A stretch of DNA of 32,000 nucleotides from Bacillus subtilis subsp. subtilis str. 168 (GTDB taxonomy: Bacteria; Bacillota; Bacilli; Bacillales; Bacillaceae), in assembly GCF_000009045.1 (NCBI RefSeq), contig NC_000964.3, positions 540,001-572,000 of the forward strand. The letters run 5' to 3'. The translations under genes and the position numbers were made by a program. This document shows, piece by piece, positions 9,873-30,327 of the stretch (its first letter is position 1; every line of letters begins with the position of its first letter). The notes under the pieces were generated by a model. That model did not search any database and was not told the origin of the DNA. It saw nothing but the letters and a program-made list of their open reading frames with translations.

Positions 9873-9932
9873 CTAGGTTGAGGGCCTAGTGGGTGAATAA
9901 CCCGTGGAGGTTCAAGTCCTCTCGGCCGCATC
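9873..9932 (+). repeat. attR: attR of ICEBs1, consisting of the 3' portion of the tRNA-Leu (trnS-leu2) gene. It is not a complete tRNA.
   Basis: CTAGGTTGAGGGCCTAGTGGGTGAATAACCCGTGGAGGTTCAAGTCCTCTCGGCCGCATC contains the variable arm, T-arm (GGAGGTTCAAGTCCTCT) and acceptor 3' strand. The exact repeat borders cannot be verified because attL is outside the window. Confidence 0.8.
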
Positions 9933-9934
9933 TC

Positions 9935-9976
9935 AATAATACCAAGGGTTTAACCACCTTTGGTATTATTTTTTTG
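9935..9976 (+). terminator. Intrinsic terminator of the tRNA operon directly after attR.
   Basis: A 14-bp stem, AATAATACCAAGGG (9935-9948) with CCTTTGGTATTATT (9957-9970), followed by TTTTTT. Confidence 0.85.
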
Positions 9977-10135
9977 TGTGGAAAATACGGCTATGGGAGA
10001 AGACTTGCTCACCAAAACTCACCAGTTACTTAAAGTAAGTCATCCAAACGGTCGGCGGTTCCTTCTGTTTATTAGGAAAAAGATATCCGTTCATTGTAAA
10101 AGAAACGAACCATGTCCTATTCGTTCAAAAAAACT

Positions 10136-10185
10136 AAAGGGTGATACATATTATACATGATTAATATGTATCACCCTTTTCTTTC
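10136..10185 (-). terminator. Strong bidirectional hairpin terminator downstream of yddN.
   Basis: AAAGGGTGATACATATT (10136-10152) pairs with AATATGTATCACCCTTT (10163-10179). It is flanked by an A-run on the left and a T-rich run on the right. Confidence 0.8.
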
Positions 10186-10239
10186 TTGTTCAACAATCGC
10201 GCTTGAGGAGAACATAAGCTAATACAACTGACTCGATTT

Positions 10240-11259
10240 CTAAAGTTGCTCCATTCTTTTTTTAAACAACTCATCCACAACCTGTTTTAAAATCTCGTAC
10301 GACTGAATTTCCTTGCTCAATTCGTAAATATTAGATAACACAATTAATTCATCTGCGTGATACATTTGTTGGAAATCAATTAGTTCGCGACGAATTGTTT
10401 CTCGATCACCCATGATTGTATACCCCAGTCGACTGTGGAGAATTTCTAATTCAAACTGTGATAACGATTCTAGGAAGTTTTCAGTGGGTGGAATAAGCTT
10501 ACTTAAATTATTTGTATAAATATCAATATACACCTGCAAATGACTTGCAGAAATAAAAGATGCCTCGTCTATAGATTCTGCTGCAATCACATTAATGCAA
10601 GCGATCACATAAGGTTCTTGTAAATAAGAAGACGGTTGGAAATTTTCTCGATAAATAGAGAGCGCTTCTTCCATCGAATGGGGTGAAAATTGAGCGCCAA
10701 ATGCATAGGGTAAACCAAGCTTTGCAGCAATTTCCGCTGAATCCGTTGAGGATCCTAACACAAAAACAGGCACATGCGTTCCAATACCCGGATAAGCGCG
10801 AACCTCACCCTGTACACTCTTATCCCCGACAAAACGCAAAATATCATTTACTTCTCTTTCAAAGAAAAACACTCCATTATGGTTGGAACGACGAATCACA
10901 TCGGCCGTTTTTTGATCCGTTCCGGGTGCGCGTCCTAATGCCAAATCTACACGATTTGGATATAATGTTTCAAGTGTTCCAAATTGCTCCGCTACGATTA
11001 ATGGGGAATGATTTGGCAACATAATACCCCCTGAACCTACGCGAATGTCTTTTGTATTTGCTAATATATGTTGTACAATTGATACGGTTGCTGCACTTGC
11101 ATAAGCGTCGTGATTATGATGCTCTGCAAACCAAATCCGTTTATAGCCCATATTATCTACAGCTTTAGCTAATGACACTGCAGAATCAATCCCTTGTTTC
11201 ATTGTTTCTCCTTGTCTTAATGGAGCAACTGATAAAACAGATATATCAAATTTTTTCAT
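10240..11259 (-). CDS. yddN: Luciferase-like (LLM-class) flavin-dependent oxidoreductase (339 aa).
   Basis: SD GAGGTGAAATT precedes the ATG. The N-terminal pattern is typical of the LLM family (SVLSVAP...WFAEHHN...GSGGIMLPNHSPL). Confidence 0.9.
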   Translation of the reverse strand: MKKFDISVLSVAPLRQGETMKQGIDSAVSLAKAVDNMGYKRIWFAEHHNHDAYASAATVSIVQHILANTKDIRVGSGGIMLPNHSPLIVAEQFGTLETLYPNRVDLALGRAPGTDQKTADVIRRSNHNGVFFFEREVNDILRFVGDKSVQGEVRAYPGIGTHVPVFVLGSSTDSAEIAAKLGLPYAFGAQFSPHSMEEALSIYRENFQPSSYLQEPYVIACINVIAAESIDEASFISASHLQVYIDIYTNNLSKLIPPTENFLESLSQFELEILHSRLGYTIMGDRETIRRELIDFQQMYHADELIVLSNIYELSKEIQSYEILKQVVDELFKKRMEQL

Positions 11260-11518
11260 AATTTCACCTCTAAAATAATGAACTTATACAAGATCAATGG
11301 AAAAAACATTTTGAAAAATTGTTTCATATTAAATGGTGTCCATTCCTCTTTGATTTGCATGCAAATAAATATATACTTTCTCAAACGATCAATACATAGG
11401 CAAAATAAAGTTATTTCACAATTTCACTTTACTTTTAAAGTTTTAAGCAAACATAAAAAAATGTTCAGTGAACAAAATATGTAAAATACATCTTATTTTT
11501 CAGAAAGGATACAAGAAA

Positions 11519-11929
11519 ATGATTGATGAAATAGATAAAAAAATACTTGATGAGCTGTCTAAAAATAGTCGCCTTACAATGAAAAAATTAGGGGAAAAAG
11601 TACATCTCACTGCACCAGCAACCGCATCAAGAGTAGTAAAGTTAATAGACAATGGCATAATAAAAGGATGTAGTATCGAAGTGAATCAAGTGAAATTAGG
11701 CTTCTCTATACATGCTTTTCTTAATATTTATATCGAAAAAATCCATCATCAACCCTATTTAGCTTTTATAGAAACACAAGATAACTATGTAATAAACAAT
11801 TATAAAGTTAGTGGAGACGGTTGCTATTTGCTTGAATGTAAATTTCCTTCAAACGAGGTATTAGATCAATTTTTAAATGACTTAAATAAACATGCAAACT
11901 ATAAAGTGTCGATTGTTATTGGTAAATAG
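11519..11929 (+). CDS. lrpA: Lrp/AsnC-family transcriptional regulator.
   Basis: The family N-terminus MIDEIDKKILDELSKNSRLTMKKLGEKVHLTAPATASRV starts at ATG 11519. The track extension from GTG 11468 lacks an SD and family similarity. Confidence 0.9.
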   Translation: MIDEIDKKILDELSKNSRLTMKKLGEKVHLTAPATASRVVKLIDNGIIKGCSIEVNQVKLGFSIHAFLNIYIEKIHHQPYLAFIETQDNYVINNYKVSGDGCYLLECKFPSNEVLDQFLNDLNKHANYKVSIVIGK

Positions 11930-11982
11930 TTAACTTTATAAAACGGAGATGTGCGGTCATATAACATGATATATATGCTCTA

Positions 11983-12029
11983 AAAAAGCCCTAGGTTGGA
12001 TATGGAATTTACCAAGCTGGGGCCTTTTT
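11983..12029. terminator. Imperfect bidirectional hairpin between convergent lrpA and lrpB.
   Basis: AAAAAGCCCTAGGTTGG pairs with CCAAGCTGGGGCCTTTTT, with one bulge and two mismatches. Confidence 0.5.
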
Positions 12030-12051
12030 ATACATTATAATAACAAGCGCA

Positions 12052-12501
12052 TTATTCATCAGACATTAATGAAGTATTATAATGCTTTTTTACTTCCTTA
12101 ATAGACAAATAAAGCTGATAGTTTCCATACTTCAATAAATCATTCAGAAGGTGATTTAAAACTTCTTGTGAATGAACCGTTACCTTCAGAAGATAACATG
12201 CATCTCCCGAAACACGATGAGCTTCGCTAATTTCATTACGAGTAGCAATAAATTTCAATAAATCATCATGCATATATGCATTCATGAAAAAGAAGACAAA
12301 GGCTGTAAAAGAAAACCCCATCTTCAATTCATCAACCACAATCGAATATGCTTTAATGATACCGTTATCCTCCATTTTTTTGATGCGATTGCCTACCGCT
12401 TGTCCTGTCATATGAATTTTTTCACCGATTTCTTTCCATTGTATCCGAGCATTTTTATTTAATAATTGGAGAATTTGAAAATCAATTGAATCAATTTGCA
12501 T
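12052..12501 (-). CDS. lrpB: Lrp/AsnC-family transcriptional regulator, paralogue of lrpA.
   Basis: ATG at 12501 (MQIDSIDFQILQLLNKNARIQWKEIGEKIHMTGQAV...) is preceded by AAAGGAG. The track start at 12516 sits inside the SD. Confidence 0.9.
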   Translation of the reverse strand: MQIDSIDFQILQLLNKNARIQWKEIGEKIHMTGQAVGNRIKKMEDNGIIKAYSIVVDELKMGFSFTAFVFFFMNAYMHDDLLKFIATRNEISEAHRVSGDACYLLKVTVHSQEVLNHLLNDLLKYGNYQLYLSIKEVKKHYNTSLMSDE

Positions 12502-12615
12502 AGTAACTCCTTTCACAGTGAAAAAGTTTTACAAAATAGTATTTCATGAGACCATCGAAAATTCAATGGAAATTATATATCCTTATACAGTATAAAAATT
12601 TTAAGAGGTGAAAAA

Positions 12616-13158
12616 ATGACAACAGCTTTATTAGTGATTGATATTCAAAATGATTACTTTCCAAATGGGAAGATGGCTTTAACAAACCCAGAGAAAGCAG
12701 CACAAAATGCGGCTAAACTACTTTCACACTTTAGAAACACAGGCGCACCTGTCTTTCATGTACAGCATATCACAGAAGGTAACATCGCTCATTTTTTCCA
12801 TCCAAATACAGAAGGTGTCGAAATTCATGAGTCAGTACGTCCATTAGAGAAAGAGACAGTCATTGTAAAACATATGCCGAATAGCTTTTTCAATACAGAT
12901 TTAAATGGAAAGCTACAAGAAGAAGGGGTTAAAGAATTAGTTGTTTGCGGTATGATGTCCCATATGTGTATTGATGCAACAGTTCGTTCTGCAGTTGAAC
13001 ATGGTTATGTATGCCAAGTGGTAGAAGATGCTTGCGCAACAACAACATTGCAAATTGAAGATAAAATCGTTCCTGCTGAGCATGTCCATTACGCATTTAT
13101 GGCCGCATTAAATGGTGTCTATGCAACAGTAAAAACCACAGAGGCATTTTTAAAATAA
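12616..13158 (+). CDS. yddQ: Isochorismatase-family cysteine hydrolase (180 aa).
   Basis: SD AAGAGGTG. Family hallmarks are LLVIDIQNDYF and the Cys motif VVCGMMSHMCIDATVRSA. Confidence 0.9.
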   Translation: MTTALLVIDIQNDYFPNGKMALTNPEKAAQNAAKLLSHFRNTGAPVFHVQHITEGNIAHFFHPNTEGVEIHESVRPLEKETVIVKHMPNSFFNTDLNGKLQEEGVKELVVCGMMSHMCIDATVRSAVEHGYVCQVVEDACATTTLQIEDKIVPAEHVHYAFMAALNGVYATVKTTEAFLK

Positions 13159-13221
13159 AAGAATTTCCTGCGCGAACATAACGTCTTTCTTTTCACAAGA
13201 AAGATGATTCAACAACTTAAA

Positions 13222-13262
13222 AAAGGATGTTCAGAAAAATACTTCTGGACATCCTTTATTCA
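13222..13262 (+). terminator. Intrinsic terminator after yddQ.
   Basis: A 15-bp stem (one G-U pair), AAAGGATGTTCAGAA (13222-13236) with TTCTGGACATCCTTT (13243-13257), followed by a T-rich tail. Confidence 0.7.
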
Positions 13263-13264
13263 TT

Positions 13265-13575
13265 ATCTTTTATTGTTTTTCAGTATCATTATTCCCATCT
13301 GATAAAAGATCAAGATGTCCTGTTTTTGATCCATAGTAAGACCATATACAGGGATTGTTTTTGCCATAAATATAGATATTGATGAAGGTTTACATAAAGC
13401 ACCTAATTGCTTGATTTACTTTAATGTTAGATCCCTCAATAACTCCATTCTCTTCTAATTTCTCTACTCTAGCTGTAGCTGCTGGGCATGTTAAATGTAC
13501 TCTCTCCCAGATCTTTCATTGAATTCGGCTATTATACATAATTTCTCTATAATTTTTTATCTGTTTGATCTATTT
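13265..13575 (-). pseudogene. Decayed third Lrp/AsnC-family gene carrying stops, a frameshift and a truncation.
   Basis: Minus-strand translation gives DQTDKKL*RNYV**PNSMKDLGE, then after a frameshift VHLTCPAATARVEKLEENGVIEGSNIKVNQAIRCFM*TFINIYIYGKNN. This is colinear with LrpA (KVHLTAPATASRVVKLIDNGIIKGCSIEVNQVKLGFSIHAFLNIYIEK). Confidence 0.65.
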
Positions 13576-13710
13576 GAACGTTAATTCCTTTCGAAAATAA
13601 AGTCAAAGAGTTAAAACACTTTTTTTTATCTATGTATTCGAACACTGCTGATATTATACACTTAACTCTGTCGATCTAAGACAAATAAAAAAAGAAAGTG
13701 AGTTGTAAAT

Positions 13711-14475
13711 ATGAATATTACACAAATTCGAAATGCAACAATTGTTGTAAAATACGCAAATAAAAAATTTTTGATAGATCCTATGTTAGCAGAGAAAGGT
13801 ACGTACGCTACTTTCCCTGAAACGATCAGACAAGATTTATTTAATCCTTTGGTGAGTTTGCCAACATCAATTGATAACATTCTGGATGGCGTAGATGCGG
13901 TAATTGTTACTCATCTACACCTAGATCACTTTGATGATGTGGCAAAAAACGTATTGCCAAAAAACATCAAAATGTTTGTTCAAAATGAAGCAGATGCAAA
14001 AGAAGTAAAAGCAAGTGGTTTCAAAAATGTAGAAGTGCTACATCAAGACACTGTTTTTGAAGGGATCCAATTAGTAAAAACAAAAGGTGAACATGGCAGA
14101 GGGGAAGAGTTATTAAACTTAATGGGTGATGTTTGTGGATTAGTATTCAAGCACCCAAGTGAAAAAGTTTTATATGTAGCTGGGGATACAGTTTGGTATG
14201 ATGCTATCGAAGACGAGATTCATACACATCAACCAGAAATCATTGTGGTTAATGGTGGAGACAATCAAAGATTAGATTTAGGTTCACTCATCATGGGAAA
14301 AGAAGACATCTATGAAGTTCACAAGGCTGCTCCTCATGCTAAGATTATATCTGTTCATATGGAAGCTGTTAACCATTGGACACTATCTAGAGAAGAATTA
14401 AAAAACTTTAGTAAAGAAAAAGGATTCTCAAGTAATATTTTAGTGCCAGAAGATGGCGAGTCTTACACATTTTAA
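13711..14475 (+). CDS. yddR: Metallo-beta-lactamase-fold hydrolase (254 aa).
   Basis: The HxHxDH motif is VTHLHLDHFDD. The SD-like sequence AAAGTGAG lies upstream. Confidence 0.9.
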   Translation: MNITQIRNATIVVKYANKKFLIDPMLAEKGTYATFPETIRQDLFNPLVSLPTSIDNILDGVDAVIVTHLHLDHFDDVAKNVLPKNIKMFVQNEADAKEVKASGFKNVEVLHQDTVFEGIQLVKTKGEHGRGEELLNLMGDVCGLVFKHPSEKVLYVAGDTVWYDAIEDEIHTHQPEIIVVNGGDNQRLDLGSLIMGKEDIYEVHKAAPHAKIISVHMEAVNHWTLSREELKNFSKEKGFSSNILVPEDGESYTF

Positions 14476-14495
14476 TATGAACACCGACAAATAAA

Positions 14496-14540
14496 TAGAA
14501 GAAGCTCATAATTATAAAAACTAATCATGAGCTTCTTCTA
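14496..14540. terminator. 14-bp hairpin after yddR, a possible terminator with no clean T-tract.
   Basis: TAGAAGAAGCTCAT (14496-14509) pairs with ATGAGCTTCTTCTA (14527-14540). Confidence 0.5.
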
Positions 14541-14668
14541 ATAATGAATATTTTAAATTTTAAATATATCGAAAATCCTAAATATACGGAATAACAAAAA
14601 TGGAATGTTCCAATGATGACAAAAAAACTTGAAAAGCAACAAAGATGTGTCGTTAGGAGGTAGAATTC

Positions 14669-15979
14669 ATGGTAATGACAAAAAAAGATACAAATATATC
14701 AACACAGCAGCCTCTTTGGTTACAAGGTTATATTGATTCACCAGAAAAACAAAACCAACTTTATAAAAAAACATTAAAAATCTTGATTTTTTCACAAATA
14801 TTTGGGGGAGCAGGACTTGGAGCTGGGATAACAGTTGGGGCGCTTCTTGCACAAGATATGATAGGATCGGAAAATGTAGCAGGAATTCCAACTGCCCTCT
14901 TTACTTTTGGATCTGCCGTAGCTGCCCTGCTTATAGGAGCATCCTCACAACGTTTTGGTCGCAGAGCTGGACTTGCAGGTGGTTTCCTTATAGGCGGATT
15001 AGGTGCTATAGGTGTGATAATCGCGGCTTTAATTAACAGCGTTGCCCTATTATTTGTTTCTCTTCTTATTTATGGAGCAGGTATGGCTTCTAATCTTCAA
15101 GTTCGGTATGCTGGGACAGACCTTGCAAATGAGAAACAACGGGCAACTGCTGCAAGTATGGCCTTAGTTTCTACTACTTTAGGAGCTGTAGTAGGTCCTA
15201 ACTTAGTTAATACAATGGGGGAATTTGCAGATTCAATTGGTGTTCCCAATTTAGCTGGTCCGTTTATTATGTCAGGAGCAGCTTTTATAATTGCTGGAAT
15301 TATTCTCTTAATTTTTCTTCGTCCAGATCCGCTGTTTGTATCAACAGCTATTGCGAATGCTGAGAAAAAAGACGATAAAGTACAAATAGGAGGAAGTCTA
15401 AAAAATCCTGCTATAGACAAAAAAGGAATAATGGTAGGAGCTGTCATTATGATTTTAGCTCAACTAATCATGACAGCTATTATGACAATGACACCGGTTC
15501 ACATGGGTCATCACGGTCATGGTTTAAGCGAAGTGGGATTAGTTATAGGACTCCATATTGCAGCGATGTATCTTCCTTCACCATTGACTGGTTTATTAGT
15601 AGATAAGTTTGGTCGCACAACTATGGCTATTGCTTCAGGTGCCACACTTCTTGCCGCTGGGTTGGTGGCAGCTATTGCACCGGCAGACTCATTATCATTG
15701 CTAATCCTAGCACTAGTATTACTAGGGGTAGGTTGGAACTTTGGTTTACTAACGGGAACTGCCCTTATTATAGATTCAACACATCCATCTCTACGTGCAA
15801 AAACACAGGGAACATTCGATGTTTTATTAGCACTATCAGGAGCAGCAGGTGGAGCCTTGTCAGGAATGGTTGTTGCACATTCTAGTTATACAATACTATC
15901 AATTTCTGGAGCCGTTTTATCATTGTTACTCATTCCAGTAGTTATTTGGTATTTTAGAAGGATTCAGGAAAAAGCATAA
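14669..15979 (+). CDS. yddS: MFS transporter (436 aa, about 12 TM segments), colinear paralogue of ydeG.
   Basis: SD AGGAGG lies 8 nt upstream. The MFS motif is GRRAGL after TM2. The protein is hydrophobic throughout. Confidence 0.92.
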   Translation: MVMTKKDTNISTQQPLWLQGYIDSPEKQNQLYKKTLKILIFSQIFGGAGLGAGITVGALLAQDMIGSENVAGIPTALFTFGSAVAALLIGASSQRFGRRAGLAGGFLIGGLGAIGVIIAALINSVALLFVSLLIYGAGMASNLQVRYAGTDLANEKQRATAASMALVSTTLGAVVGPNLVNTMGEFADSIGVPNLAGPFIMSGAAFIIAGIILLIFLRPDPLFVSTAIANAEKKDDKVQIGGSLKNPAIDKKGIMVGAVIMILAQLIMTAIMTMTPVHMGHHGHGLSEVGLVIGLHIAAMYLPSPLTGLLVDKFGRTTMAIASGATLLAAGLVAAIAPADSLSLLILALVLLGVGWNFGLLTGTALIIDSTHPSLRAKTQGTFDVLLALSGAAGGALSGMVVAHSSYTILSISGAVLSLLLIPVVIWYFRRIQEKA

Positions 15980-16561
15980 GCTTATATAACTGTCTTTGAA
16001 GAACCTAAGTAGACATTACTTTACCGGAACCTCCTTTTTCTATTTATTATAGTAAGGAGTTGACATGGCATTAGTGGCATGTGTATAACTACACAATTAT
16101 TTGGGATTCAGAGAGCATGTAATGAACGGAAGAGATAATTATTTATCACTTTTATTATTGTACGGTGTTCTTGTGGCATTAAGTTCAGTCAATTTTGGTC
16201 TAACTGTTTTCTTTTTGTTTTCATCACCTCTCCATATTATTAACAAACACGAAAAGGATTTTAATGAAAATAAAATGATTAGCGTATGTATCTCTAATTT
16301 TCAAAATGAATGAATAGTCCTTTTTAAGATTTACACACTTATTCTCCAAGGAAAAATGACTCAATTTTTCGATTTTTTATGTAAATCAAAAAAGAATCAT
16401 GTTAGAGTAGGTGTGCTGAAAATAATTCAAAAAATTATTTTGCGATATGATTAAAGTAATATTGCCAGAGAGTTTCAATTGGACAAAATTGTAAGTGTTT
16501 AATACACTGGGGCTGCAATCAAATATGCACCTGGAATCAATTGCTAAACGGGGGAGTTTAT

Positions 16562-16738
16562 ATGAACAACAAGAAAAATATCTTTGATATTGTTATGTAC
16601 ATTATTTTCGGTGTGTTAAGTCTTTTTCTAGTTGCAAAAACTGATTATGGCACTGGAGTTTTAGTGTTTGTTGCAATTTTATACCTCGCTGTTATTGCTT
16701 ATAAAATTAAGCAAGTATTTAGTAATTCAGATTCTTAA
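16562..16738 (+). CDS. Small two-TM membrane protein (58 aa), possibly ydzM of strain 168.
   Basis: GGGGGAG lies 7 nt before ATG 16562. The TM segments are IFDIVMYIIFGVLSLFLVA and GVLVFVAILYLAVIAY. The gene lies 24 nt upstream of yddT. Confidence 0.6.
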   Translation: MNNKKNIFDIVMYIIFGVLSLFLVAKTDYGTGVLVFVAILYLAVIAYKIKQVFSNSDS

Positions 16739-16762
16739 GGTGTAACACAAGGAGGATTTCAA

Positions 16763-17449: not shown

Positions 17450-17453
17450 TTTT

Positions 17454-17492
17454 AAAATCACTTTGTCTTTATAAAGGACAAAGTGATTTTTT
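17454..17492 (+). terminator. Intrinsic terminator after yddT.
   Basis: AAAATCACTTTGTC (17454-17467) pairs with GACAAAGTGATTTT (17477-17490), followed by TT. Confidence 0.8.
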
Positions 17493-18058: not shown

Positions 18059-18074
18059 AAGTCATAAAGTTGGG

Positions 18075-22389: not shown

Positions 22390-22501
22390 TCTGACTTCAC
22401 ACCTCAATATATTTATATTTTTTCATTCAATTTGAGTATTTTTTATCATGTTTTGCATTTATTATAACACTATTATTATATTTATTAGTGAGGAGTCATG
22501 T

Positions 22502-23461: not shown

Positions 23462-23480
23462 GGGCTTTTTTTGCTTACAT

Positions 23481-23534
23481 GACCGGTCCGGCAATGAAAA
23501 ACACTGGTGGAGTTTGAGCCCTCTCGGCAGTATC
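23481..23534 (+). repeat. Degenerate copy of the tRNA-Leu 3' end / att core (copy B).
   Basis: GTGGAGTTTGAGCCCTCTCGGCAGTATC compared with attR GTGGAGGTTCAAGTCCTCTCGGCCGCATC gives 23 of 29 matching positions with one gap, by my hand alignment. Weaker similarity extends upstream (GCAATGAAAAACAC versus GGGTGAATAACCC). Confidence 0.6.
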
Positions 23535-23571
23535 AAAAATACCAAGGGTTTTGACGCCCTAGGTATTTTTT
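23535..23571. terminator. Bidirectional terminator between convergent ydeD and ydeE, homologous to the hairpin after attR.
   Basis: AAAAATACCAAGGG (23535-23548) pairs with CCCTAGGTATTTTT (23557-23570), with one mismatch. It has the same AATACCAAGGG arm as 9938-9948. Confidence 0.75.
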
Positions 23572-23613
23572 CTTCAAGAACCTTCAATTTTTCTTCTCTG
23601 ATTGAAAAACGTA

Positions 23614-24486
23614 TTACTTTTTTGTGATTGGTATCCAAATTTCACTTTTAAAAGATGGTGATGTTACATCCTTATGCTCGTTCCACAATATTTCTGGACC
23701 TTCTATTTGTTCGTAATTTGACGATGGAAACCATTCGGAATAAATGCGTCCCCATACTTCTTGCAGTGTATCCGGAAATGGCCCGATTGATTCGAATACA
23801 GCCCATGTTGAGGCAGGAACTTCAAGCCGTGAGAAGTTATCTGGACACCGTTTCGTTGTGGCTGCGCCAATATAGTGATCGAGCTCTCCGTTTTCCTCTG
23901 TCCGACCTTCAGAAAAATTCGTGGATGCACTAATGAGGCCTGATGGTGCTACATTAGATAGCTCTTTTAGTTTATTTATTGCTTTTTCATCTAAACTTTC
24001 CCACATAGATGCAATTTCCGGATTAATTCCTTTGAAAATAATAGGAACTCTTTTTTTAATGCCAACGATGCGAAATGCCTCTTTTTCTTCAATACGGTAG
24101 TTCATTTCATTTCCTCCTTTAATTGTTAGCTGGAAGGTCATTCGTGGATAAGCTTTAAGGGAATGGCCATTAAATCTGGCTTTTGATGGGTTTATGCCAT
24201 GTAAATTTTGGAATGCCCGTGCAAAAGAATCTGGTGAGTTATAACCGTACTTTATTGCAATATCAATCACTTTTACATTGCTGTCTTTCAGTTCAAAAGC
24301 TGCAAGAGTAAGACGTCTGCGACGAATATATTCCGATAATGAAATACCTGCAAGGAAGGAAAACATCCTTTTAAAATGATATTCAGAGCAGAAAGCAAGC
24401 TTTGCTGCCTCTTGAAAATCAATATCATTAGTGAGGTTTTCTTCAATATACTTTAACGCCCTATTCATACTTTTAAGCAAATCCAT
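23614..24486 (-). CDS. ydeE: AraC-family regulator with a C-terminal GyrI-like effector-binding domain (290 aa).
   Basis: The N-terminal HTH pair includes [19 protein letters not shown]...[13 protein letters not shown]. The C-terminal ~150 aa match a GyrI-like/SOUL-type pattern ([11 protein letters not shown]...WIPI). Confidence 0.9.
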
Positions 24487-24712
24487 TTATTTGGCCTCCT
24501 TTAACCAAAGAATAACAGGAGTGAAATGTATTTATCCGACATTCTGTGCACAGTTTTGCAGGATGACTTATATGAAATAAAGTAAGTGATTCACTTGTAT
24601 TTGTACAGGTTTTATTGAAGCATGCTGTTCATAAAAAGGCATCAATAAAAGAAAGTTATAATTGTCTTATAAACGGCACATTCATATAATTGAGTGAAAA
24701 AGGATGCGTATC

Positions 24713-26101
24713 ATGCCTATCAATTCTTTTGAAAATTATCCGATGAGCTGGAAGCCATCGATTGATAAAGCTGAAAAGCCTATTTATAAAGCACTTGCAG
24801 GGCAATTGGAACAGGATATTTTAAACGGAGTTTTATTACCTGGAACAAAACTTCCTCCACAGCGAGAATTGGCCGATTATCTAGATTTAAATGTGAGTAC
24901 GATTTCAAAAGCATTTAAAGTGTGTGAGTTAAAAGGGCTGCTGAGTGCGACTGTAGGGAGCGGCACATTTGTATCGTATGATGCGTTGTCGAATGCGTAT
25001 TTACTTGAGGATACTAAGCCGACACATTTAATTGAAATGGGAGCAATACTTCCAGATCACGCTTCATATGAGCCCTTGTTATACCAACTGAAAAACATGG
25101 TTCATGAGGAGGATTATGAAAAATGGTTTAGCTATGGCCGGGCAGGTGAAAGCCTTTGGCAAAAAGATGCAGCTGTAAAGCTCATCCAAAGAGGCGGATT
25201 TGAAACATCCGTTGATCACATTTTATTTGCAAATGGAGGGCAAAATGCGATTGCAGCGACATTGGCGAGTCTTTGTAAGCCTGGAGATCGCATCGGAGTT
25301 GACCATCATACGTACCCTGGATTAAAAACTGTTGCATCATTGCTTAGTGTGCAAATCGTACCGATAAAATCAGAAAACGATGAAATGAGTCCGGAGTCAC
25401 TTGAATATGCGTGTAAAAACGAAAATATTAAAGGTTTGTATTTAATCCCGGATTATCATAATCCGACGACTTCCTTTATGTCTGTTGAGAATCGAAGAAT
25501 GGTTGCAGACATTGTAAAGAAATATAATCTGTTTGTTATTGAGGATGCATCGTACCATCTTCTCAACAAAAATCCGCTTCCGGCACTCGCCTCATTCGCA
25601 CCGCAACAGGTTATTCATATTGCAAGTTTATCAAAATCGTTAGCGCCAGGCCTGCGTTTGGCTTATGTAGCAGTGCCGAGACAATATAAGGAGCCAATAT
25701 CAAAGGCGCTTTATAATTTAAATATAACTGTTTCCCCGCTATTAGCTGAACTTACTGCTCGCACGATTGTATCAAATCAATTTGAAGTCTTAATTGAGAG
25801 TCATCGTGAACAAACCATTCGCAGAAATCAACTCGTAAACCGATATGTTGCGGGATATACATGTTTAGGTGTTGAAACAGGCATTTTTCGTTGGTTGTTG
25901 TTACCGGGTAAAATGTCTGGTGCCGAATTTGAAGAATTGGCTGCTCGACTTGGCGTGCAAGTGTATGCGGCTGAACGCTTTGTAGTGGGAAATAGTTGTC
26001 CTGAAAGGGCTGTAAGGGTTTCTGTCTGTGCACCAAAAACACTTGAAGAGCTTGAACAAGGATTAATGATCCTGAGACGTTTGCTAGACGATCTTACCTA
26101 A
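24713..26101 (+). CDS. ydeF: MocR/GntR-family regulator: a winged HTH fused to a PLP aminotransferase-like domain (462 aa).
   Basis: The GntR HTH is LPPQRELADYLDLNVSTISKAFKVCELKGLL. The fold-type-I-like body has the SLSK lysine motif (IASLSKSLAPGLR). ATG 24713 has better SD spacing than 24704. Confidence 0.92.
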   Translation: MPINSFENYPMSWKPSIDKAEKPIYKALAGQLEQDILNGVLLPGTKLPPQRELADYLDLNVSTISKAFKVCELKGLLSATVGSGTFVSYDALSNAYLLEDTKPTHLIEMGAILPDHASYEPLLYQLKNMVHEEDYEKWFSYGRAGESLWQKDAAVKLIQRGGFETSVDHILFANGGQNAIAATLASLCKPGDRIGVDHHTYPGLKTVASLLSVQIVPIKSENDEMSPESLEYACKNENIKGLYLIPDYHNPTTSFMSVENRRMVADIVKKYNLFVIEDASYHLLNKNPLPALASFAPQQVIHIASLSKSLAPGLRLAYVAVPRQYKEPISKALYNLNITVSPLLAELTARTIVSNQFEVLIESHREQTIRRNQLVNRYVAGYTCLGVETGIFRWLLLPGKMSGAEFEELAARLGVQVYAAERFVVGNSCPERAVRVSVCAPKTLEELEQGLMILRRLLDDLT

Positions 26102-26109
26102 TATTGTTT

Positions 26110-26141
26110 GCCATACAATTATGACATTGTATGGCTTTTTT
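26110..26141 (+). terminator. Intrinsic terminator after ydeF.
   Basis: GCCATACAAT (26110-26119) pairs with ATTGTATGGC (26126-26135), followed by TTTTTT. Confidence 0.85.
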
Positions 26142-26210
26142 GTGCGTGTTATGATGATCCACATCTAGAGGGAGGTTTATACAAAATTGGCTTTTAGAAA
26201 GGAAGGTCAG

Positions 26211-27503
26211 ATGATGTTAGACAAGGACAGCGTAAAAGCAATAGATGTTCAAACTGCTTCATTACAGAGCTACATCAGTTCACCAGAAAAACAAAAATCG
26301 TTATACAAGCGTACACTATTCGTTGTGAGTATCTCACAAATTTTTGGCGGTGCGGGGCTGGCGGCAGGAGTGACTGTCGGTGCGCTTATTGCACAGCAAA
26401 TGCTTGGCACTGATGCGTTTGCTGGTTTGCCTTCTGCTTTATTTACTTTAGGGTCAGCAGGATCTGCATTAATTGTTGGAAGACTTTCTCAACGTTATGG
26501 CCGTCGAACAGGTCTTTCAGCTGGCTTTATGATTGGCGGACTTGGAGCAATAGGCGTTATTATGGCAGCAATCATAAATAGTATTTTCTTGTTATTTATT
26601 TCGTTGCTTATTTACGGTGCAGGTACAGCCACTAATTTACAGGCCCGTTATGCAGGTACAGACTTAGCAAATCATAAGCAGCGAGCGACTGCTGTTAGTA
26701 TAACCATGGTTTTTACTACATTTGGCGCAGTGGCAGGTCCAAGCTTAGTGAATGTGATGGGGGATTTCGCTCTTTCTATTGGTGTTCCATCACTTGCTGG
26801 CCCTTTCATTTTAGCCGCAGCAGCATATATGTTAGCAGGTGTGGTCCTTTTCATTATGCTTCGTCCAGATCCATTAGTTATAGCAAGAACAATAGAAGCG
26901 GCAAATGAAGAGCCTGGTGATAAAGGACATTTGGCGGCAACTGAGCATACAGAAAACAAAAAAGGGATAATCGTTGGGGCAACGGTTATGGTTCTTACCC
27001 AAATAGTAATGGTAGCTATTATGACAATGACACCGGTTCATATGAGACATCATGGGCATGACTTGGGTGCAGTCGGTCTTGTTATTGGTTTTCATATAGG
27101 TGCTATGTATCTCCCTTCACTTGTTACAGGTGTTCTTGTAGATAGGTTGGGACGTACCGCAATGGCTATTTCCTCTGGAACAACGTTGCTTTTGGCAGGT
27201 GTAATAGCAGCATTTGCTCCGGGAGAATCTATGATTCTTCTCGTCATTGCTCTTTCTTTACTGGGATTAGGGTGGAATTTTGGTTTGATAAGCGGGACTG
27301 CCCTTATTGTAGATTCAACTGATACTGCCACACGAGCTAAAACGCAGGGGACAGTGGATGTTCTGATTGCGTTGTCAGGAGCTGCTGGCGGAGCATTATC
27401 TGGAATGATTGTGGCAGGTTCAAGTTACCTCGCATTATCACTTATTGGAGGGATTTTGTCCTTATTACTCATTCCGGTGGTGGTATGGTCTAGGGGCCGC
27501 TAA
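26211..27503 (+). CDS. ydeG: MFS transporter (430 aa), paralogue of yddS.
   Basis: ATG 26211 lies behind GAAAGGAAGG. An alternative TTG at 26187 lies behind GGGAGG. The protein is colinear with YddS along its whole length. Confidence 0.92.
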   Translation: MMLDKDSVKAIDVQTASLQSYISSPEKQKSLYKRTLFVVSISQIFGGAGLAAGVTVGALIAQQMLGTDAFAGLPSALFTLGSAGSALIVGRLSQRYGRRTGLSAGFMIGGLGAIGVIMAAIINSIFLLFISLLIYGAGTATNLQARYAGTDLANHKQRATAVSITMVFTTFGAVAGPSLVNVMGDFALSIGVPSLAGPFILAAAAYMLAGVVLFIMLRPDPLVIARTIEAANEEPGDKGHLAATEHTENKKGIIVGATVMVLTQIVMVAIMTMTPVHMRHHGHDLGAVGLVIGFHIGAMYLPSLVTGVLVDRLGRTAMAISSGTTLLLAGVIAAFAPGESMILLVIALSLLGLGWNFGLISGTALIVDSTDTATRAKTQGTVDVLIALSGAAGGALSGMIVAGSSYLALSLIGGILSLLLIPVVVWSRGR

Positions 27504-27661
27504 AGGGTAGGATTGTTTAATTTACATTAATTTGTTATATTGTTAGATAAAGTATATTGCAGCATCTAATATTCTAACGAACTATAGTTGCTCCATTAAA
27601 TCTATTATAAAGATTTGACCAGGATTCCTTATAGCTGTGTCACTCACTGCATATTCTTTAA

Positions 27662-28108
27662 TTGAATCACATAAAATGGTTATCGGATTTGAAAAAGGCA
27701 GGATTACTCGCTTTAGGTAAAGGAGTCATAACGTTGTTAAAAAGGTTTTCTCTTGTTATTGTTACACTAATGATGTCTATCGTTGTTGTTTTAGCGGCTG
27801 CTAAAGAGTCGCCTGGAGATCATGTCATCTCATTTGATGAACCTATTATCTTGATGATCTCAATTGGAATCGTTGTATTTTTATTGATCCCTCCATTAGT
27901 CATGTCCTTTTTTGGCAATTTGGTTGTAAGAATAATATCTGGTGTATACCAATGTTTTATCGTTTTCACTTTTCTGGGGCTCATTCCAATTGGATTTCTT
28001 ATTCCCAATGGCTTTTTGACAATTCTAGTTTCTATTGCAGGAACTTTAGTCAGTATAGCTAGTGTTGCCGTAACCTTATGCATTGGCAAGAATAAAAAAG
28101 ATATATAA
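27662..28108 (+). CDS. ydeH: Small polytopic membrane protein. The start is uncertain.
   Basis: The track TTG at 27662 has no SD. The in-frame TTG at 27734 lies 8 nt after AAAGGAG and gives the N-terminus (M)LKRFSLVIVTLMMSIVVVLAAA. There are four hydrophobic segments. Confidence 0.75.
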   Translation: MNHIKWLSDLKKAGLLALGKGVITLLKRFSLVIVTLMMSIVVVLAAAKESPGDHVISFDEPIILMISIGIVVFLLIPPLVMSFFGNLVVRIISGVYQCFIVFTFLGLIPIGFLIPNGFLTILVSIAGTLVSIASVAVTLCIGKNKKDI

Positions 28109-28155
28109 TCATCGAATTGTTATTTTTTCAGATTGTCAGTGAAATAATTATACAA

Positions 28156-28187
28156 AAAGAGAAGGCTTGTGGGCCTTCTTTTTTTGT
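28156..28187 (+). terminator. Intrinsic terminator after ydeH.
   Basis: AGAAGGC (28160-28166) pairs with GCCTTCT (28173-28179), followed by TTTTTTT. Confidence 0.7.
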
Positions 28188-28344
28188 TGTTGCATCATCC
28201 CCACTTTGAGCTTAATCTATTGAATAATAAGAGAAGGAACCTATAGAAGAATAAAATAAATACCGAGATGTCAAAAATAAAACTGGACTTCATTATTGTG
28301 AATTCACGTAAATGTAAAAAGATTGGAAAGAGGGGAATTCCTTC

Positions 28345-28938
28345 ATGACAAATAGCAGAACAAATCCGAAGGTTGATGAATTTTTAAGTAAAGCGAAAAA
28401 GTGGAAGGAAGAATTTGAGAAGTTGAGAACCATCATTCTTGACTGTGAGCTGACTGAAGATTTTAAGTGGATGCATCCTTGTTACACATATCATAATAAA
28501 AATATTGTTTTAATACATGGGTTTAAAGAATATTGCGCGCTTCTGTTCCACAAAGGCGTCTTATTACAGGATACAGATGGAATTCTCATTCAACAAACGG
28601 AGAATGTACAGGCGGCGCGCCAGATTCGGTTTACAAATGTTCAGGAAATAAATGAGCTAGAAAACATTTTGAAAGCCTATATTCACGAAGCCATTGAAGT
28701 TGAAAAAGCCGGTTTGAAAGTGGATGTTAACAAAAATATTGAATTGAACATTCCTGAAGAACTTCAAAATAAATTCGATGAAATCCCTGCATTGAAAATT
28801 GCTTTTGAAGCTTTGACCCCGGGACGGCAAAGAGCGTACACTCTTTATTTTTCTCAAGCCAAACAATCCAAAACCCGAGAATCGAGAGTCGAAAAATATG
28901 TGCAAAAAATTCTCGATGGAAAGGGATTAAAGGATTAG
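28345..28938 (+). CDS. ydeI: Cytoplasmic protein of the YdeI/DUF1801-type family (197 aa); function unknown.
   Basis: SD AGAGGGGA. It is a clean ORF with its own terminator. The family assignment is from memory of the 168 annotation, not from a motif. Confidence 0.8.
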   Translation: MTNSRTNPKVDEFLSKAKKWKEEFEKLRTIILDCELTEDFKWMHPCYTYHNKNIVLIHGFKEYCALLFHKGVLLQDTDGILIQQTENVQAARQIRFTNVQEINELENILKAYIHEAIEVEKAGLKVDVNKNIELNIPEELQNKFDEIPALKIAFEALTPGRQRAYTLYFSQAKQSKTRESRVEKYVQKILDGKGLKD

Positions 28939-29000
28939 GCACGCCAAGGTTCAGGCTAAAGGAATAGCATCATAGCGTAATAAGATCATTTCTATAGAAG

Positions 29001-29034
29001 AAAAACAAGCATAGTAAGATGCTTGTTTTTTCTT
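29001..29034 (+). terminator. Intrinsic terminator after ydeI.
   Basis: AAAAACAAGCAT (29001-29012) pairs with ATGCTTGTTTTT (29019-29030), followed by TCTT. Confidence 0.8.
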
Positions 29035-29289
29035 AGGACAACATTCACTTACTGCTGAAATGCTTCTAACATTGTATGCCACTAGACAGCGTTATAAAAT
29101 ATTAATGCAACACCTAGAAATCTATCCAATGAAATAGCTCAATGGTATGGCTCATTACATTTAGAATGCCTAGGAGAACTAATAGAACCGGAAGATTTTT
29201 AGCAAGTTACTACACTCCAAACTTTGTTTTTGTATTAATATACCTTATTAACCATTGTTTTTAGTCAGGTGCAGACAAACGAATACTGA

Positions 29290-29949
29290 TTAATGAATCA
29301 TCATGATATCAATGAGCCGCTTGATTTTTTCATCGTCGCCTGTATCAACGTACACTGTTTTTCTGTTTTTTATGATACTCTCAGTCACTTCCCGCATGAC
29401 GCCTTTTTCTATATCATCAGCGGAATCCCAGCGTAAAGGCACATTATATACATGAATTGTGCCATCCCCATTGCCATGATAAGTGACTGATCCATCCACT
29501 AAACGAGAACCTGCCAACTGGGTCACATTTTCTGGATAGCTGGCACTTGTATCATCATTAGGATTAATTGGCTCGCCAGCCGCAATATGTCGAACATTTA
29601 ATTCATCTATCTCTTGATTAGGTCCAAGTTGAAGCCAAACTCTGGCATATTCAATTTTTTCCGAAGAGTATGCTGCCAATACATTGTCTTCTTTGCTTTT
29701 CTCTTCTGCTGAAGAGGTATCATTTGCAGCTTTTGTTGCGGATTCTTCTGATTCTGTTATTGGCTCCGCTTCATCCTTGCGTATTTTGGTGCTCTCTTCA
29801 GGCTCAGTGTGTTTTTCGTCAGTTTGCACAGCAGAAGCTTGATTTGAAGGTTGTTGTGCTTCTCCATCCTTACTGTCCGTACATCCAGCAAGCAAAATCA
29901 TAAGCAGCAGGGCAGTATTGCAATAACATATCTTTCTGCGTTTCTTCAT
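29290..29949 (-). CDS. ydeJ: Lipoprotein with an acidic low-complexity linker (219 aa).
   Basis: The signal peptide and lipobox are MKKRRKICYCNTALLLMILLAGC-TD. This is followed by an E/S/T/K-rich linker and then a globular C-terminal domain. Confidence 0.85.
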   Translation of the reverse strand: MKKRRKICYCNTALLLMILLAGCTDSKDGEAQQPSNQASAVQTDEKHTEPEESTKIRKDEAEPITESEESATKAANDTSSAEEKSKEDNVLAAYSSEKIEYARVWLQLGPNQEIDELNVRHIAAGEPINPNDDTSASYPENVTQLAGSRLVDGSVTYHGNGDGTIHVYNVPLRWDSADDIEKGVMREVTESIIKNRKTVYVDTGDDEKIKRLIDIMMIH

Positions 29950-30261
29950 TTTTTCATTCCTCTCTATTAATTCAGGTCAGCTTCATATATAAGTTTATGT
30001 ATCTAAATATTACCATGGAATAGATAGGATGATATTGAAAACTGTTTAAGAAGAGGAAACGATCTTGAATAGCATCGCGAAAACCTAAGAATCTTAAGAA
30101 GTTTTGCCCCTTTTTCTTCAGGTATTGAATGTAAAGTGGGATATAAATGCAAACAAAAACGAAATGCCTTATCCACCTCGTGTCATGGCAGAAAAAGTGG
30201 GGGATTTATTAGAGCGGATTTGATAATGGCGGCAGGTAAATGGGTGTTGACTTATATGTCT

Positions 30262-30294
30262 AAGCGGGAGACTCAAGTCTGCTCGATCGCATAC
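30262..30294 (+). repeat. Second, more degenerate copy of the tRNA-Leu 3' end / att core (copy C).
   Basis: CGGGAGACTCAAGTCTGCTCGATCGCATA compared with attR GTGGAGGTTCAAGTCCTCTCGGCCGCATC gives 20 of 29 matching positions by hand. TGGGTG upstream (30241-30246) echoes the variable-arm TGGGTG at 9890-9895. Confidence 0.5.
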
Positions 30295-30327
30295 AAAATA
30301 CCAAGGGCCAGCAACCCTTGGTATTTT
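30295..30327. terminator. Perfect 13-bp bidirectional terminator downstream of ydeK, third member of the AATACCAAGGG hairpin family.
   Basis: AAAATACCAAGGG (30295-30307) pairs with CCCTTGGTATTTT (30315-30327). Confidence 0.8.

Follow-up and report, generated by a model that had tools for sequence, protein, structure and literature searches.

How the gene-rich stretch downstream of ICEBs1 came to carry several copies of the end of a tRNA gene is the question raised by this locus of Bacillus subtilis subsp. subtilis str. 168. The window (the whole stretch of 32,000 nucleotides analysed here, positions 540,001 to 572,000 of NC_000964.3) contains three same-strand copies, designated A, B and C, of a unit formed by the 3' end of tRNA-Leu(GAG) and a AATACCAAGGG hairpin. 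The initial annotation, made from the sequence alone, had noticed these copies; their sequences are as described there, and their limits have been refined (Table 1). Together with a fourth unit, E, beyond the window, they are very probably attR-type scars of ICEBs1-family ICEs that serially entered trnS-leu2, the last gene of the trnS operon.

Table 1. Features of the window, with positions counted from its first nucleotide.
Feature	Coordinates	Strand	Details
Right arm of ICEBs1 CTTTTGTAAATAAAGATATGATTTTA, element-side half of attR	9847-9872	+	Profile positions 1-25
Unit A (ICEBs1 attR)	9873-9976	+	Right arm (9847-9872) in front
17-bp att core CTAGGTTGAGGGCCTAG	9873-9889	+	Anticodon stem-loop of tRNA-Leu(GAG)
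Crossover spacer TTGAGGG	9878-9884	+	Within the att core of A
Rest of the retired tRNA-Leu(GAG) 3' half	9890-9930	+	Variable arm, T arm, acceptor strand, discriminator
Hairpin A with T-run, putative retired trnS operon terminator	9935-9976	+	Hairpin 9935-9970, T-run to 9976; terminator scan
Remnant, 3' end of older ICEBs1-family integrase gene	10033-10106	-	aa 342-368 of 368, one frameshift
Lrp/AsnC pseudogene fragment	13366-13545	-	tblastn, 49% to aa 29-89 of the Lrp protein encoded at 11468-11929
Rap C-terminal remnant	18156-18302	+	tblastn with the window's RapI, aa 341-384, E=1e-3
Rap C-terminal remnant	20960-21105	+	tblastn with RapI, aa 325-381, E=7e-7
Truncated EamA permease	21180-21416		
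Unit B	23504-23572	+	Decayed T arm and acceptor 23504-23537; hairpin arms 23538-48 and 23557-67
3' stub of TetR gene	30155-30226	+	Left by a 1.7-kb deletion
Unit C	30267-30330	+	Decayed T arm and acceptor 30267-30296; hairpin 30297-30325, arms 30297-307 and 30315-25

Anatomy and significance of the units

For ICEBs1, attL and attR have been described as direct repeats of 60 bp in trnS-leu2 that share a 17-bp core (Lee et al. 2007; Menard & Grossman 2013, PMC3715440), and attB as a 7-bp crossover spacer between 5-bp inverted repeats (PMC3715440). The attR so described is unit A, with the same core, spacer and repeat. Its core matches the published attB, the 60-bp direct repeat spans 9873-9932, and its 3' half is identical to that of the intact trnS-leu2 in four relatives (L016, L031, L033 and L045). 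As an ICEBs1-type att site, A is a predicted substrate of the tyrosine recombinase Int (with Xis).

In comparison with these sites, B and C are degenerate relatives without the core; no mention of either copy was found in the literature searched. Within the window, A alone has the core with its 7-bp spacer; the sequence in front of B and C shows neither core nor ICE arm, and the profile alignments begin downstream of the core (at model position 55 for B and 59 for C). The hairpin of B has one A.A mismatch, and that of C has perfect 11-bp arms. Unit B is placed between the convergent genes 22448-23461(+) and 23614-24486(-), and 46 bp separate C from the stop codon of 30371-31243(-), an EamA gene.

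The arm sequence AATACCAAGGG occurs seven times in the window at no more than one mismatch, against 0.55 expected, and six of these seven occurrences are arms of hairpins A, B and C. With A alone as the query, nhmmer retrieved both B (E=8.8e-7) and C (E=5.9e-4). A profile built from other species only recovered B with E=3.1e-15 (model positions 55-125) and C with E=6.4e-10, and found no further copy at E<=1 in the whole window; a --max profile scan of six candidate breakpoint sub-regions of the window likewise yielded no extra unit. ARAGORN found no complete tRNA in the window, and Rfam none at the gathering score. The units of the window hold tRNA 3'-half sequence only, with no cloverleaf formed by both halves.

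Against shuffled controls, the tRNA-like similarity proposed initially stood for B and not for C. When the hairpin was removed and the tRNA-only profile was run over the whole window, B remained significant (E=1.1e-3; 13.9 bits, with 11.8 for the best of 100 shuffles) and the tRNA-like part of C fell within the shuffle range (E=0.6; 5.2 bits). That part of C is therefore convincing only via its fixed register beside the hairpin, in which the anchored alignment gives z=5.5, and via the orthologues at its position in B. spizizenii and B. rugosus, which retain nearly the whole attR (L038, E=2e-24; L035, E=1e-23). Hand counts on the alignment give an identity to the 27-nt T arm and acceptor of 21/27 for B and 19/25 for C. 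These values are close to the earlier counts, from which a fall in similarity with distance from attR had been proposed. Such a fall can serve only as a rough clock, since a new element can enter any scar with a good core and each retired 3' half would come from a different ICE lineage, as suggested by the recurrence of distinct spacer and loop types.

The terminator hairpin and its transport by ICEs

The hairpin appears to be the native terminator of the trnS tRNA operon, judging by its position directly 3' of an intact tRNA-Leu(GAG), the last of a seven-tRNA cluster, in five species (L013, L016, L031, L033 and L045). The predicted fold of A has -18.1 kcal/mol on the plus strand and -16.1 kcal/mol on the minus strand, with -16.3 kcal/mol for B and -17.5 kcal/mol for C; overall, hairpins A to C range from -16 to -18 kcal/mol (+) and from -15 to -21 kcal/mol (-), with z between -3.9 and -5.7. 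The terminator scan listed hairpin A, returned only the inner 5-bp stem for B, and had a range that ended before C. A stable stem-loop, an A-tract and a T-tract were found at the 3' ends of convergent genes, as in two-way intrinsic (Rho-independent) terminators, which likewise combine an A-tract, a stem of 11-15 pairs, a T-tract, stability on both strands and convergent genes. The difference is that the stem sequence is common here by descent from one att cassette, not by convergence. From its fold, hairpin A is predicted to terminate in both directions, and B and C presumably retain terminator activity. In Clostridia, the same AATACCAAGGG hairpin also follows tRNA genes at a distance of 2-11 nt, and two of these genes are tRNA-Leu(GAG).

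An ICE-borne copy can be recognized in B. rugosus (L016), where tRNA and hairpin (5566-5595) are followed in turn by int (5658-6764, minus strand), immA and immR. The same tRNA-hairpin-int junction occurs in L045, with an Int C-terminus that is 100% identical. The hairpin thus appears, from these two junctions, to be a regular part of the left end of the ICEBs1 family (tRNA 3' half, hairpin, int). Elements that bring their own 3' half and hairpin would, with each integration, retire the previous 3' half together with its hairpin.

Serial integration could then proceed as follows. On the circular element, the att region would run from the right arm through the 17-bp core, the remainder of the tRNA 3' half and the terminator hairpin to a convergent int. 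After an Int crossover within the 7-bp spacer TTGAGGG, the working tRNA would take its 3' half and hairpin from the element, and the previous 3' half and hairpin would be pushed to the far end of the element, behind the new right arm. There, the displaced half would precede the earlier downstream DNA, that is, the int of the older element. Subsequent internal deletions would strip int and the conjugation genes and leave the cargo, with the retired hairpins retained between convergent genes, where they plausibly survive because they are still two-way terminators.

The junction at A has the order that this accretion model predicts: the right arm, the retired half with its hairpin, and then about 27 last codons of an older int (tblastn with L016 Int: 83% over 18 aa and 100% over 9 aa). 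Homology of A to the L016 attL region, in contrast with the 60-bp repeats known for ICEBs1, extends through the hairpin into this int stub (window 9873-10126, about 260 bp, 94% identity). L031, which has no ICE, carries this stub too, as do L027, L013, L029 and L059. In B. tequilensis (L033), tRNA and hairpin are followed immediately by an int pseudogene joined to a cwlT fragment, a decay intermediate. Against accretion, no integrase or conjugation-gene remnants were found after B or C, and the stub after A is unlike the int-proximal flank of ICEBs1. The single metagenome contig for the ICEBs1 left end begins just past the expected hairpin position.

The copied unit is larger than the att core, and the initial annotation therefore considered that an ancestral element had captured the tRNA end and terminator by imprecise excision. 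An ICE-borne hairpin needs some origin, and capture at a tRNA locus in the distant past would be a plausible one. However, the array does not require it: precise integration already duplicates the hairpin, which is standard at the left end in L016 and L045, between the convergent tRNA and int, and the junctions examined are without the irregular extra flanking DNA of recent imprecise excision. We regard this origin as very improbable.

Conservation of the array and variability of its modules

A hairpin-based search, which biases the sample to copies with intact hairpins, was extended to 16 genomes of the B. subtilis/licheniformis group. In this sample, 26 of the 27 pattern hairpins are preceded by tRNA-Leu-like sequence, which argues against a terminator family scattered without a tRNA flank, an outcome that the initial annotation had named as adverse. 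Units on any one contig are all on the same strand, and they lie downstream of the tRNA on all three contigs with both. In a complete B. spizizenii genome, three pattern matches and four profile units all fall between 656 and 689 kb. In the better-preserved copies, tRNA homology begins exactly at the TTGAGGG crossover, with a conserved ICE right arm in front, and the tRNA 5' half is absent from every copy aligned. The attR-like copies of B. stercoris, B. spizizenii, B. atrophaeus, B. inaquosorum, B. glycinifermentans, B. swezeyi and B. paralicheniformis carry the arm motif CTTTYRTAA-N7-GATATG-NN-TTTAC in front of the crossover. Orthologues in other species also retain core or arm sequence for C (L038 and L035) and for B (L069, from model position 12). 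As B and C have neither in this strain, their att origin rests on these orthologues and on register, not on their own sequence.

Unit E lies about 3.6 kb past the end of the window and was located in a 168-type strain (L071, 5531-5615, E=3e-15). With A, B and C it makes up a tandem array, understood as at least three same-strand att-derived repeats at or downstream of the target gene. B. subtilis has at least four successive displaced tRNA ends, and relatives have more.

It is hardly credible that the units are ordinary terminators of one sequence family with chance tRNA similarity, or products of tandem tRNA gene duplication. The same hairpin does follow unrelated tRNA genes in Clostridia, and the tRNA-like part of C alone is within the shuffle range, but B is significant without the hairpin, the tRNA-like part accompanies nearly all Bacillus hairpins (26/27), the orthologues of C and E retain the ICE arm and crossover, and the hairpin was located in a single region of the complete B. 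spizizenii genome. Duplication is contradicted by the missing 5' half, and both variants were rejected.

Units A, B, C and E are all presence/absence breakpoints. At A, the ICE is present or absent (absent in L031). At B, B. spizizenii L065 is without window 20796-23503, and homology ends exactly at 23572. At C, L035, L038 and L050 have different genes on the left; their homology to the window begins at 30273-30296, and all retain the ICE arm and crossover. At E, B. subtilis strains (L070, L073 and L074) differ by nested indels of 1.2 kb and 3.6 kb that are anchored to the edge of the hairpin, and E has three different right-hand neighbours among them. In other species, units occur at positions equivalent to window 16102, 19085, 20795/20933 and 27491/27650, where modules vary; the 168-type sequence has lost them. 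Furthermore, the 1.7-kb deletion near C, which also counts as a breakpoint at this unit, removed a VTT-domain gene, a unit D, HPr and most of TetR: L001 12792-11089 is missing from the window, with flanks 94-96% identical, and the full VTT-unit D-HPr-TetR arrangement is found in several B. subtilis strains.

Serial integration with older scars outward, as first proposed, thus gains support from the int stub, the ICE-borne hairpin, the right arms, the single locus and strand, and the breakpoints at B, C and E. Of the two blocks then delimited (9933-23534 and 23572-30294), the boundaries at B and C hold, but the blocks are composites of smaller modules, not single fossil elements. The two Rap remnants, the Lrp pseudogene and the truncated permease cited as decayed mobile DNA were all found. 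The Rap remnant at 20960-21105 sits at the left edge of the module absent from L065. The Lrp pseudogene is divergent from a metallo-beta-lactamase-fold gene (13711-14475), and in L038, L035 and L050 the immediate left neighbour of unit C is an intact paralogous lrp/MBL gene pair. The mosaic composition was also confirmed, with GC of 0.29-0.44 up to about 29.5 kb and 0.49 just past C. The 'prophage-like region 2' mentioned in the initial annotation, a composition-defined region roughly twice the length of ICEBs1, would be consistent with this step at C and with a published deletion series in which 'prophage1-6' is paired with a separate delta(ydeK-ydhU).

The modules themselves are small (1.2-6 kb) and carry regulators, transporters and enzymes. 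Related modules differ in order and orientation in B. glycinifermentans, and the YdeE gene shows 82-89% identity across distant genera and lies at unrelated loci in B. velezensis. Module boundaries coincide with the 3' end of the hairpin (for B, in L065; and for E), not with the crossover spacer, which is unlike the outcome of simple Int-mediated excision and counts against accretion. These features, together with the lack of conjugation remnants in the modules, favour a variant that we consider possible but unlikely: the units would be att scars, but most modules would never have been complete ICEs, being instead CIME/IME-like islands or swapped cassettes. Non-conjugative islands could have been integrated in trans by an ICE integrase, or cargo could have been swapped by homologous or homology-facilitated recombination in natural transformation, with the 60-110-bp units as anchors. 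Against this stand the int stub after A and after several copies in other species, the ICE right arms in front of many units, and the Rap remnants and half-deleted ICE (L033), which indicate that whole ICEs decay in place. The variant complements accretion rather than excluding it. Under accretion by complete elements, each module would have started out as a full ICE; this and the order of events are inferred.

Accretion at trnS-leu2 among known integration sites

In Streptococcus thermophilus, tandem accretion and cis-mobilisable elements (CIMEs) have been described where ICESt1/ICESt3 integrate (Pavlovic et al. 2004; Bellanger et al. 2011; as presented in PMC5812530). As portrayed in that account, this site resembles the present one in its several same-strand att-type repeats, its segments without integrase or conjugation genes, and its strain-variable content. 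Here, in contrast, the target is a tRNA gene whose retired 3' half, with a terminator, is found in every scar, and the array is old enough to be common to several species. The inner segments of a CIME lie between functional att sites and can be excised by a resident ICE; with the core lost from B and C in this strain, no composite excision would be expected. Segments of this kind may exist in B. stercoris, B. atrophaeus or B. spizizenii, where two or three units retain arm and core.

The tandem arrays of SXT/R391 at prfC (Hochhut et al. 2001; Burrus & Waldor 2004; as presented in PMC5812530) are alike in that related ICEs reuse one att site, followed by deletions and hybrid formation. As portrayed there, those arrays are intact, unstable and seen in the laboratory, whereas this one is a fossil record made up mostly of cargo. 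Finally, in tRNA-linked genomic islands a displaced 3' end of the tRNA forms the boundary (Williams 2002, as cited in PMC3715440). There too, as outlined in the citing paper, the displaced fragment marks the far end and the integrase targets the anticodon loop; the present locus differs in having at least four successive displaced ends, each with a terminator hairpin now between convergent genes.

Tandem accretion at a tRNA att site is a known process, of which this locus is a new example. The data support a gene-rich stretch downstream of ICEBs1 that was built by repeated insertion at one tRNA gene, followed by decay. The indels at the hairpin 3' edge, the modules reordered across species and the post-tRNA hairpins of Clostridia also suggest a bolder and rather improbable reading, in which the tRNA 3' half and hairpin would form a reusable docking or recombination site, with the hairpin recognised by a recombinase or directing breakage, and an integron-like cargo array would stand behind trnS-leu2 in the whole B. 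subtilis/licheniformis group. If this were true, the retired cassettes would be more than scars.

Three copies of the tRNA-Leu(GAG) 3´ end and its hairpin

The window is 168-type B. subtilis DNA, with 99.99% identity to several 168-lineage assemblies. Positions 1-9872 are the right half of ICEBs1, from conG to yddM in the names of the 168 map; RapI and other ICE proteins encoded in the window served as search queries. The ICEBs1 attR follows as unit A (9873-9976). According to ARAGORN, the window contains no complete tRNA and thus only 3´-half tRNA sequence.

The initial annotation described three copies of the tRNA-Leu 3´ end plus a hairpin, and this description is borne out. There are three occurrences of the hairpin, AATACCAAGGG-loop-CC(C/T)T(T/A)GGTATT, all on the + strand, and a profile built exclusively from copies of other species retrieves B (23504-23572, E=3.1e-15) and C (30267-30330, E=6.4e-10), with no fourth copy in the window at E<=1. 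With one mismatch or fewer, the 11-mer is found seven times in the window (0.55 expected), six of these being arms of the three hairpins. A single-query nhmmer search with A, covering the window and 28 related loci, gave E=8.8e-7 for B and E=5.9e-4 for C.

Locations of the attachment-site features, hairpins, units and compared genes
Feature	Location	Strand	Remark
17-bp att core CTAGGTTGAGGGCCTAG	window 9873-9889	+	from sequence; agrees with published ICEBs1 attB (PMC3715440)
60-bp repeat	window, ends 9932	+	
Hairpin copies	window 9938-9967, 23538-23567, 30297-30325	+	pattern AATACCAAGGG-loop-CC(C/T)T(T/A)GGTATT
Non-Bacillus hairpins after tRNA genes	L011 3141-3168; L032 5742-5770; L036 2303-2332; L049 2703-2730; L057 2886-2913		
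lrp/MBL pair	window 11468-11929 and 13711-14475; L038 2337-3769		compared pairs
Units D, E in B. subtilis strains	L001 12346-12412 and 5541-5619; L071 5531-5615		

The resemblance of the tRNA-like part to tRNA, judged against shuffled controls, holds for B but not for C alone. When the hairpin columns are left out and the whole window is searched without an anchor, B stays significant (13.9 bits, E=1.1e-3), above the maximum of 100 shuffles (3.2 ± 2.0 bits, maximum 11.8), while C does not (5.2 bits, E=0.6). In fixed register beside its hairpin, the tRNA-like part of C reaches z=5.5 in an anchored alignment, and the B. spizizenii and B. rugosus orthologues that occupy the position of C, upstream of the same EamA gene, keep a nearly full attR (E=2e-24 and 1e-23). 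B and C are each similar to A and not to each other, as expected if each derived independently from a working tRNA 3´ half.

Two candidate features were rejected. A 'TTACATG' remnant of the ICE arm upstream of B depended on a hand alignment that is at chance level up to the T arm, the profile alignment beginning at 23504. In strain BSP1, the T stem and acceptor of C show seemingly compensatory changes; as the T arm does not pair in the canonical register, they were read as decay.

Right after hairpin A, at 9977-10008, lies a weak reverse-strand copy of the T-arm and acceptor (GCAAGTCTTCTC..AGCCGTAT), forming an extended imperfect palindrome around terminator A; it is also present in the B. rugosus attL (L016), in B. 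tequilensis (L033) and in L020.

The hairpin scan, with one genome per species, returned 49 loci. In B. paralicheniformis, B. rugosus, Bacillus sp. N13C7, B. tequilensis and Bacillus sp. ISL-51, the hairpin stands directly 3´ of an intact tRNA-Leu(GAG), the final gene of the cluster Asn-Ser-Glu-Gln-Lys-Leu(TAG)-Leu(GAG); the trnS operon thus has this hairpin as its native terminator. The folding energy of the hairpin is -16 to -18 kcal/mol (+ strand) and -15 to -21 kcal/mol (- strand), and its flanks are an A-tract on the 5´ side and a T-tract on the 3´ side. A stronger conservation of the hairpin than of the tRNA part is unsupported given ascertainment, as the conservation is partly an artefact of hairpin-based discovery of the copies; in the B. 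stercoris orthologue of B, the hairpin is the more altered. The cassette, notably the hairpin, may have a sequence-specific role.

In distant Bacillota, 5 of the 22 non-Bacillus matches place the AATACCAAGGG...CCCTTGGTATT hairpin 2-11 nt past the CCA of a tRNA gene. The genes are tRNA-Leu(GAG), once in an Oscillospiraceae MAG and once in a Clostridium MAG, tRNA-Arg(TCT), tRNA-Val(CAC) and tRNA-Val(GAC). The ORFs just downstream of the two tRNA-Leu(GAG) hairpins include no integrase.

Probable serial integration at trnS-leu2 and the hairpin in each scar

Across 16 Bacillus genomes, tRNA-like sequence lies upstream of 26 of 27 distinct pattern hairpins, which contradicts a terminator family scattered without such a flank. 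All units on any one contig share the same strand, and in the three contigs holding both they lie 10-39 kb downstream of the tRNA. In the complete genome of B. spizizenii TU-B-10, pattern matches are confined to 656.4, 683.9 and 689.3 kb, where there are four profile units. This restriction to one locus is drawn from species other than B. subtilis, whose representative gave no scan match, probably due to masking of the window region. No viral contig matches the pattern, and nothing suggests that the cassette travels on phages.

When all copies are aligned, tRNA homology in the well-preserved ones begins at the crossover spacer TTGAGGG, directly behind a conserved arm (CTTTYRTAA-N7-GATATG-NN-TTTAC); no copy in the alignment has the tRNA 5´ half.

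The order of genes at L016 bears on why every scar carries the hairpin. There, a 368-aa integrase gene on the opposite strand has its stop codon within ~60 bp past an intact tRNA and hairpin, with immA and immR beyond, which is the arrangement of an ICEBs1-family left end. L045 has the same tRNA-hairpin-int junction, and the left-end order comes from these two loci. On this order, the att region of the element itself would comprise core, tRNA 3´ half and hairpin. A crossover in TTGAGGG would then place the element's 3´ half and hairpin at attL, pushing the previous ones to attR, behind the right arm of the element. Imprecise excision capturing flanking DNA, raised earlier as an alternative origin of the long unit, becomes unnecessary, since the L016 and L045 left ends already carry the hairpin.

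Under serial integration, a retired unit is predicted to adjoin the int of an older element. The window encodes Int residues 342-368 at 10033-10106 (-), with one frameshift, and 9873-10126 shares 94% identity with the attL region of L016. The ICE-free N13C7 locus and four other species have this int stub as well, and the 'empty' ICEBs1 attB locus is therefore itself an old ICE's left end. Neither B nor C is followed by an int remnant. An int-end primer sequence from the literature matches one metagenome contig, which starts just past the expected hairpin position, and has no match in viral contigs.

At L033 5186-6554 in B. tequilensis, an intact tRNA and hairpin precede a frameshifted int pseudogene (aa 148-368) fused to a cwlT fragment, an ICE partway through decay. 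Between the int stub of the window and a luciferase-like monooxygenase gene, a palindrome with a perfect stem of 18 bp and T-runs on either strand (10136-10179) is probably the two-way terminator of that gene.

Module boundaries, decay and composition

Presence/absence breakpoints coincide with units B and C. At C, three species match the window rightward from 30273-30296, and to the left they have a paralogous lrp/MBL gene pair in place of the ydeE-ydeJ genes. At B, the homology of L065, from a B. spizizenii strain, covers window 27491-23572 and ends exactly at the edge of B; only a partial hairpin and then window 20795-19088 follow. L065 lacks the module 20796-23503 (rap remnant, truncated EamA, AraC, EamA), whose left limit, at 20795/20933, is a unit site in B. 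stercoris. Other species have units at window-equivalent positions 16102 and 19085 and between ydeG-like and ydeH-like genes. A profile search with --max found no trace of lost units in the window at 16102, 19085, 20795-20933 or 27500-27660. The two blocks of the initial annotation (9933-23534 and 23572-30294) therefore keep their breakpoints at B and C but are composites of smaller modules, given the units and breakpoints at intermediate positions in other species. Module edges fall at the hairpin 3´ edge and not at the crossover, so later turnover may have proceeded via homologous or illegitimate recombination at units rather than Int.

Two further units were found. Unit D belongs to a 1.7-kb segment (VTT-domain gene, D, HPr, TetR) of B. 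subtilis BSP1 and several further strains; the window has lost all of this segment but a TetR 3´ stub at 30155-30226. Unit E lies ~3.6 kb past the end of the window, between ydeO-like and ydeP-like genes; its sequence begins at the anticodon loop (TTTTTGAGGC...), and it occurs in a 168-type strain (L071, E=3e-15). It is a hotspot of nested indels (1.2-kb and 3.6-kb) between B. subtilis strains, anchored at the hairpin edge.

Several observations concern the genes of the modules. Paralogous MFS transporters in different modules (14669-15979 and 26187-27503) are 64% identical, and an lrp/MBL pair ~70% identical to that of the window adjoins unit C in B. spizizenii, B. rugosus and N13C7. The AraC/GyrI-like regulator at 23614-24486 (-) has homologues with 82-89% aa identity in Paenibacillus, Brevibacillus, Peribacillus and Aneurinibacillus, and its B. 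velezensis homologue is at unrelated loci without units, which suggests wide horizontal spread of the gene. AOTY01000001.1 (L061, from 15224 onward) is identical to the window down to 17264 and then carries unrelated genes (YgxA-like nucleotidyltransferase, DUF2614), a rearrangement or deletion endpoint not at a unit. Rfam matches above gathering score are a cspA thermoregulator (19183-19512), the leader of cold-shock gene 19264-19464, and the BsrC small RNA (19894-19980).

The decayed mobile DNA reported between the copies is confirmed by two Rap C-terminal remnants, an Lrp pseudogene and an EamA permease truncated in the window but full-length in B. stercoris; the block genes are regulators, transporters and enzymes. 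GC is 0.29-0.44 up to ~29.5 kb and 0.49 just past C, which fits, indirectly, a composition-defined island in 168 that is reportedly about twice as long as ICEBs1. Literature searches gave nothing direct on the exact 'prophage 2' limits.

The proposed fall in similarity with distance from the tRNA holds as a rough proxy of age and not as a strict one, because cassettes come from different ICE lineages and intact scars are open to new elements; distinct spacer and loop types recur among the aligned copies. Core and arm are absent from B and C in the window, so these units should not be Int substrates in 168.

Probable tandem accretion at the ICEBs1 target

The int stub after A, the hairpin in the ICE left end, the TTGAGGG signature, the confinement of units to one locus and one strand, and the breakpoints together uphold successive integrations at trnS-leu2. 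Judged from these sequence comparisons, the array appears to be a case of tandem accretion at an att site. Such accretion has been described for ICESt1/ICESt3 with their CIMEs and for SXT/R391 arrays (cited in PMC5812530). The process is the same in those systems, whereas the target here is the ICEBs1 tRNA gene. No prior description of the trnS-leu2 array appears in searchable papers, and it is a new example of a process already known.

Among Gram-positive bacteria, ICEBs1 serves as the main model for integrative conjugative elements, and the B. subtilis reference genome is that of strain 168. An attB that is the left end of an older ICE, sharing ~260 bp with an ICEBs1-family attL, int stub included, bears on RecA-dependent ICE loss, att-site evolution and the design of ICE-free strains. 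In some strains the inner att sites are seemingly intact, with arm and core retained in B. stercoris D7XPN1, B. atrophaeus NRS 213 and B. spizizenii TU-B-10, making them candidates for composite excision. The low-GC yddN-ydeJ region, with ydeK-ydeO beyond, would owe its origin to cargo modules stacked via one tRNA gene and common to the species complex, with modular variation, and the array offers a natural series on the decay of ICEs into fixed chromosomal genes.
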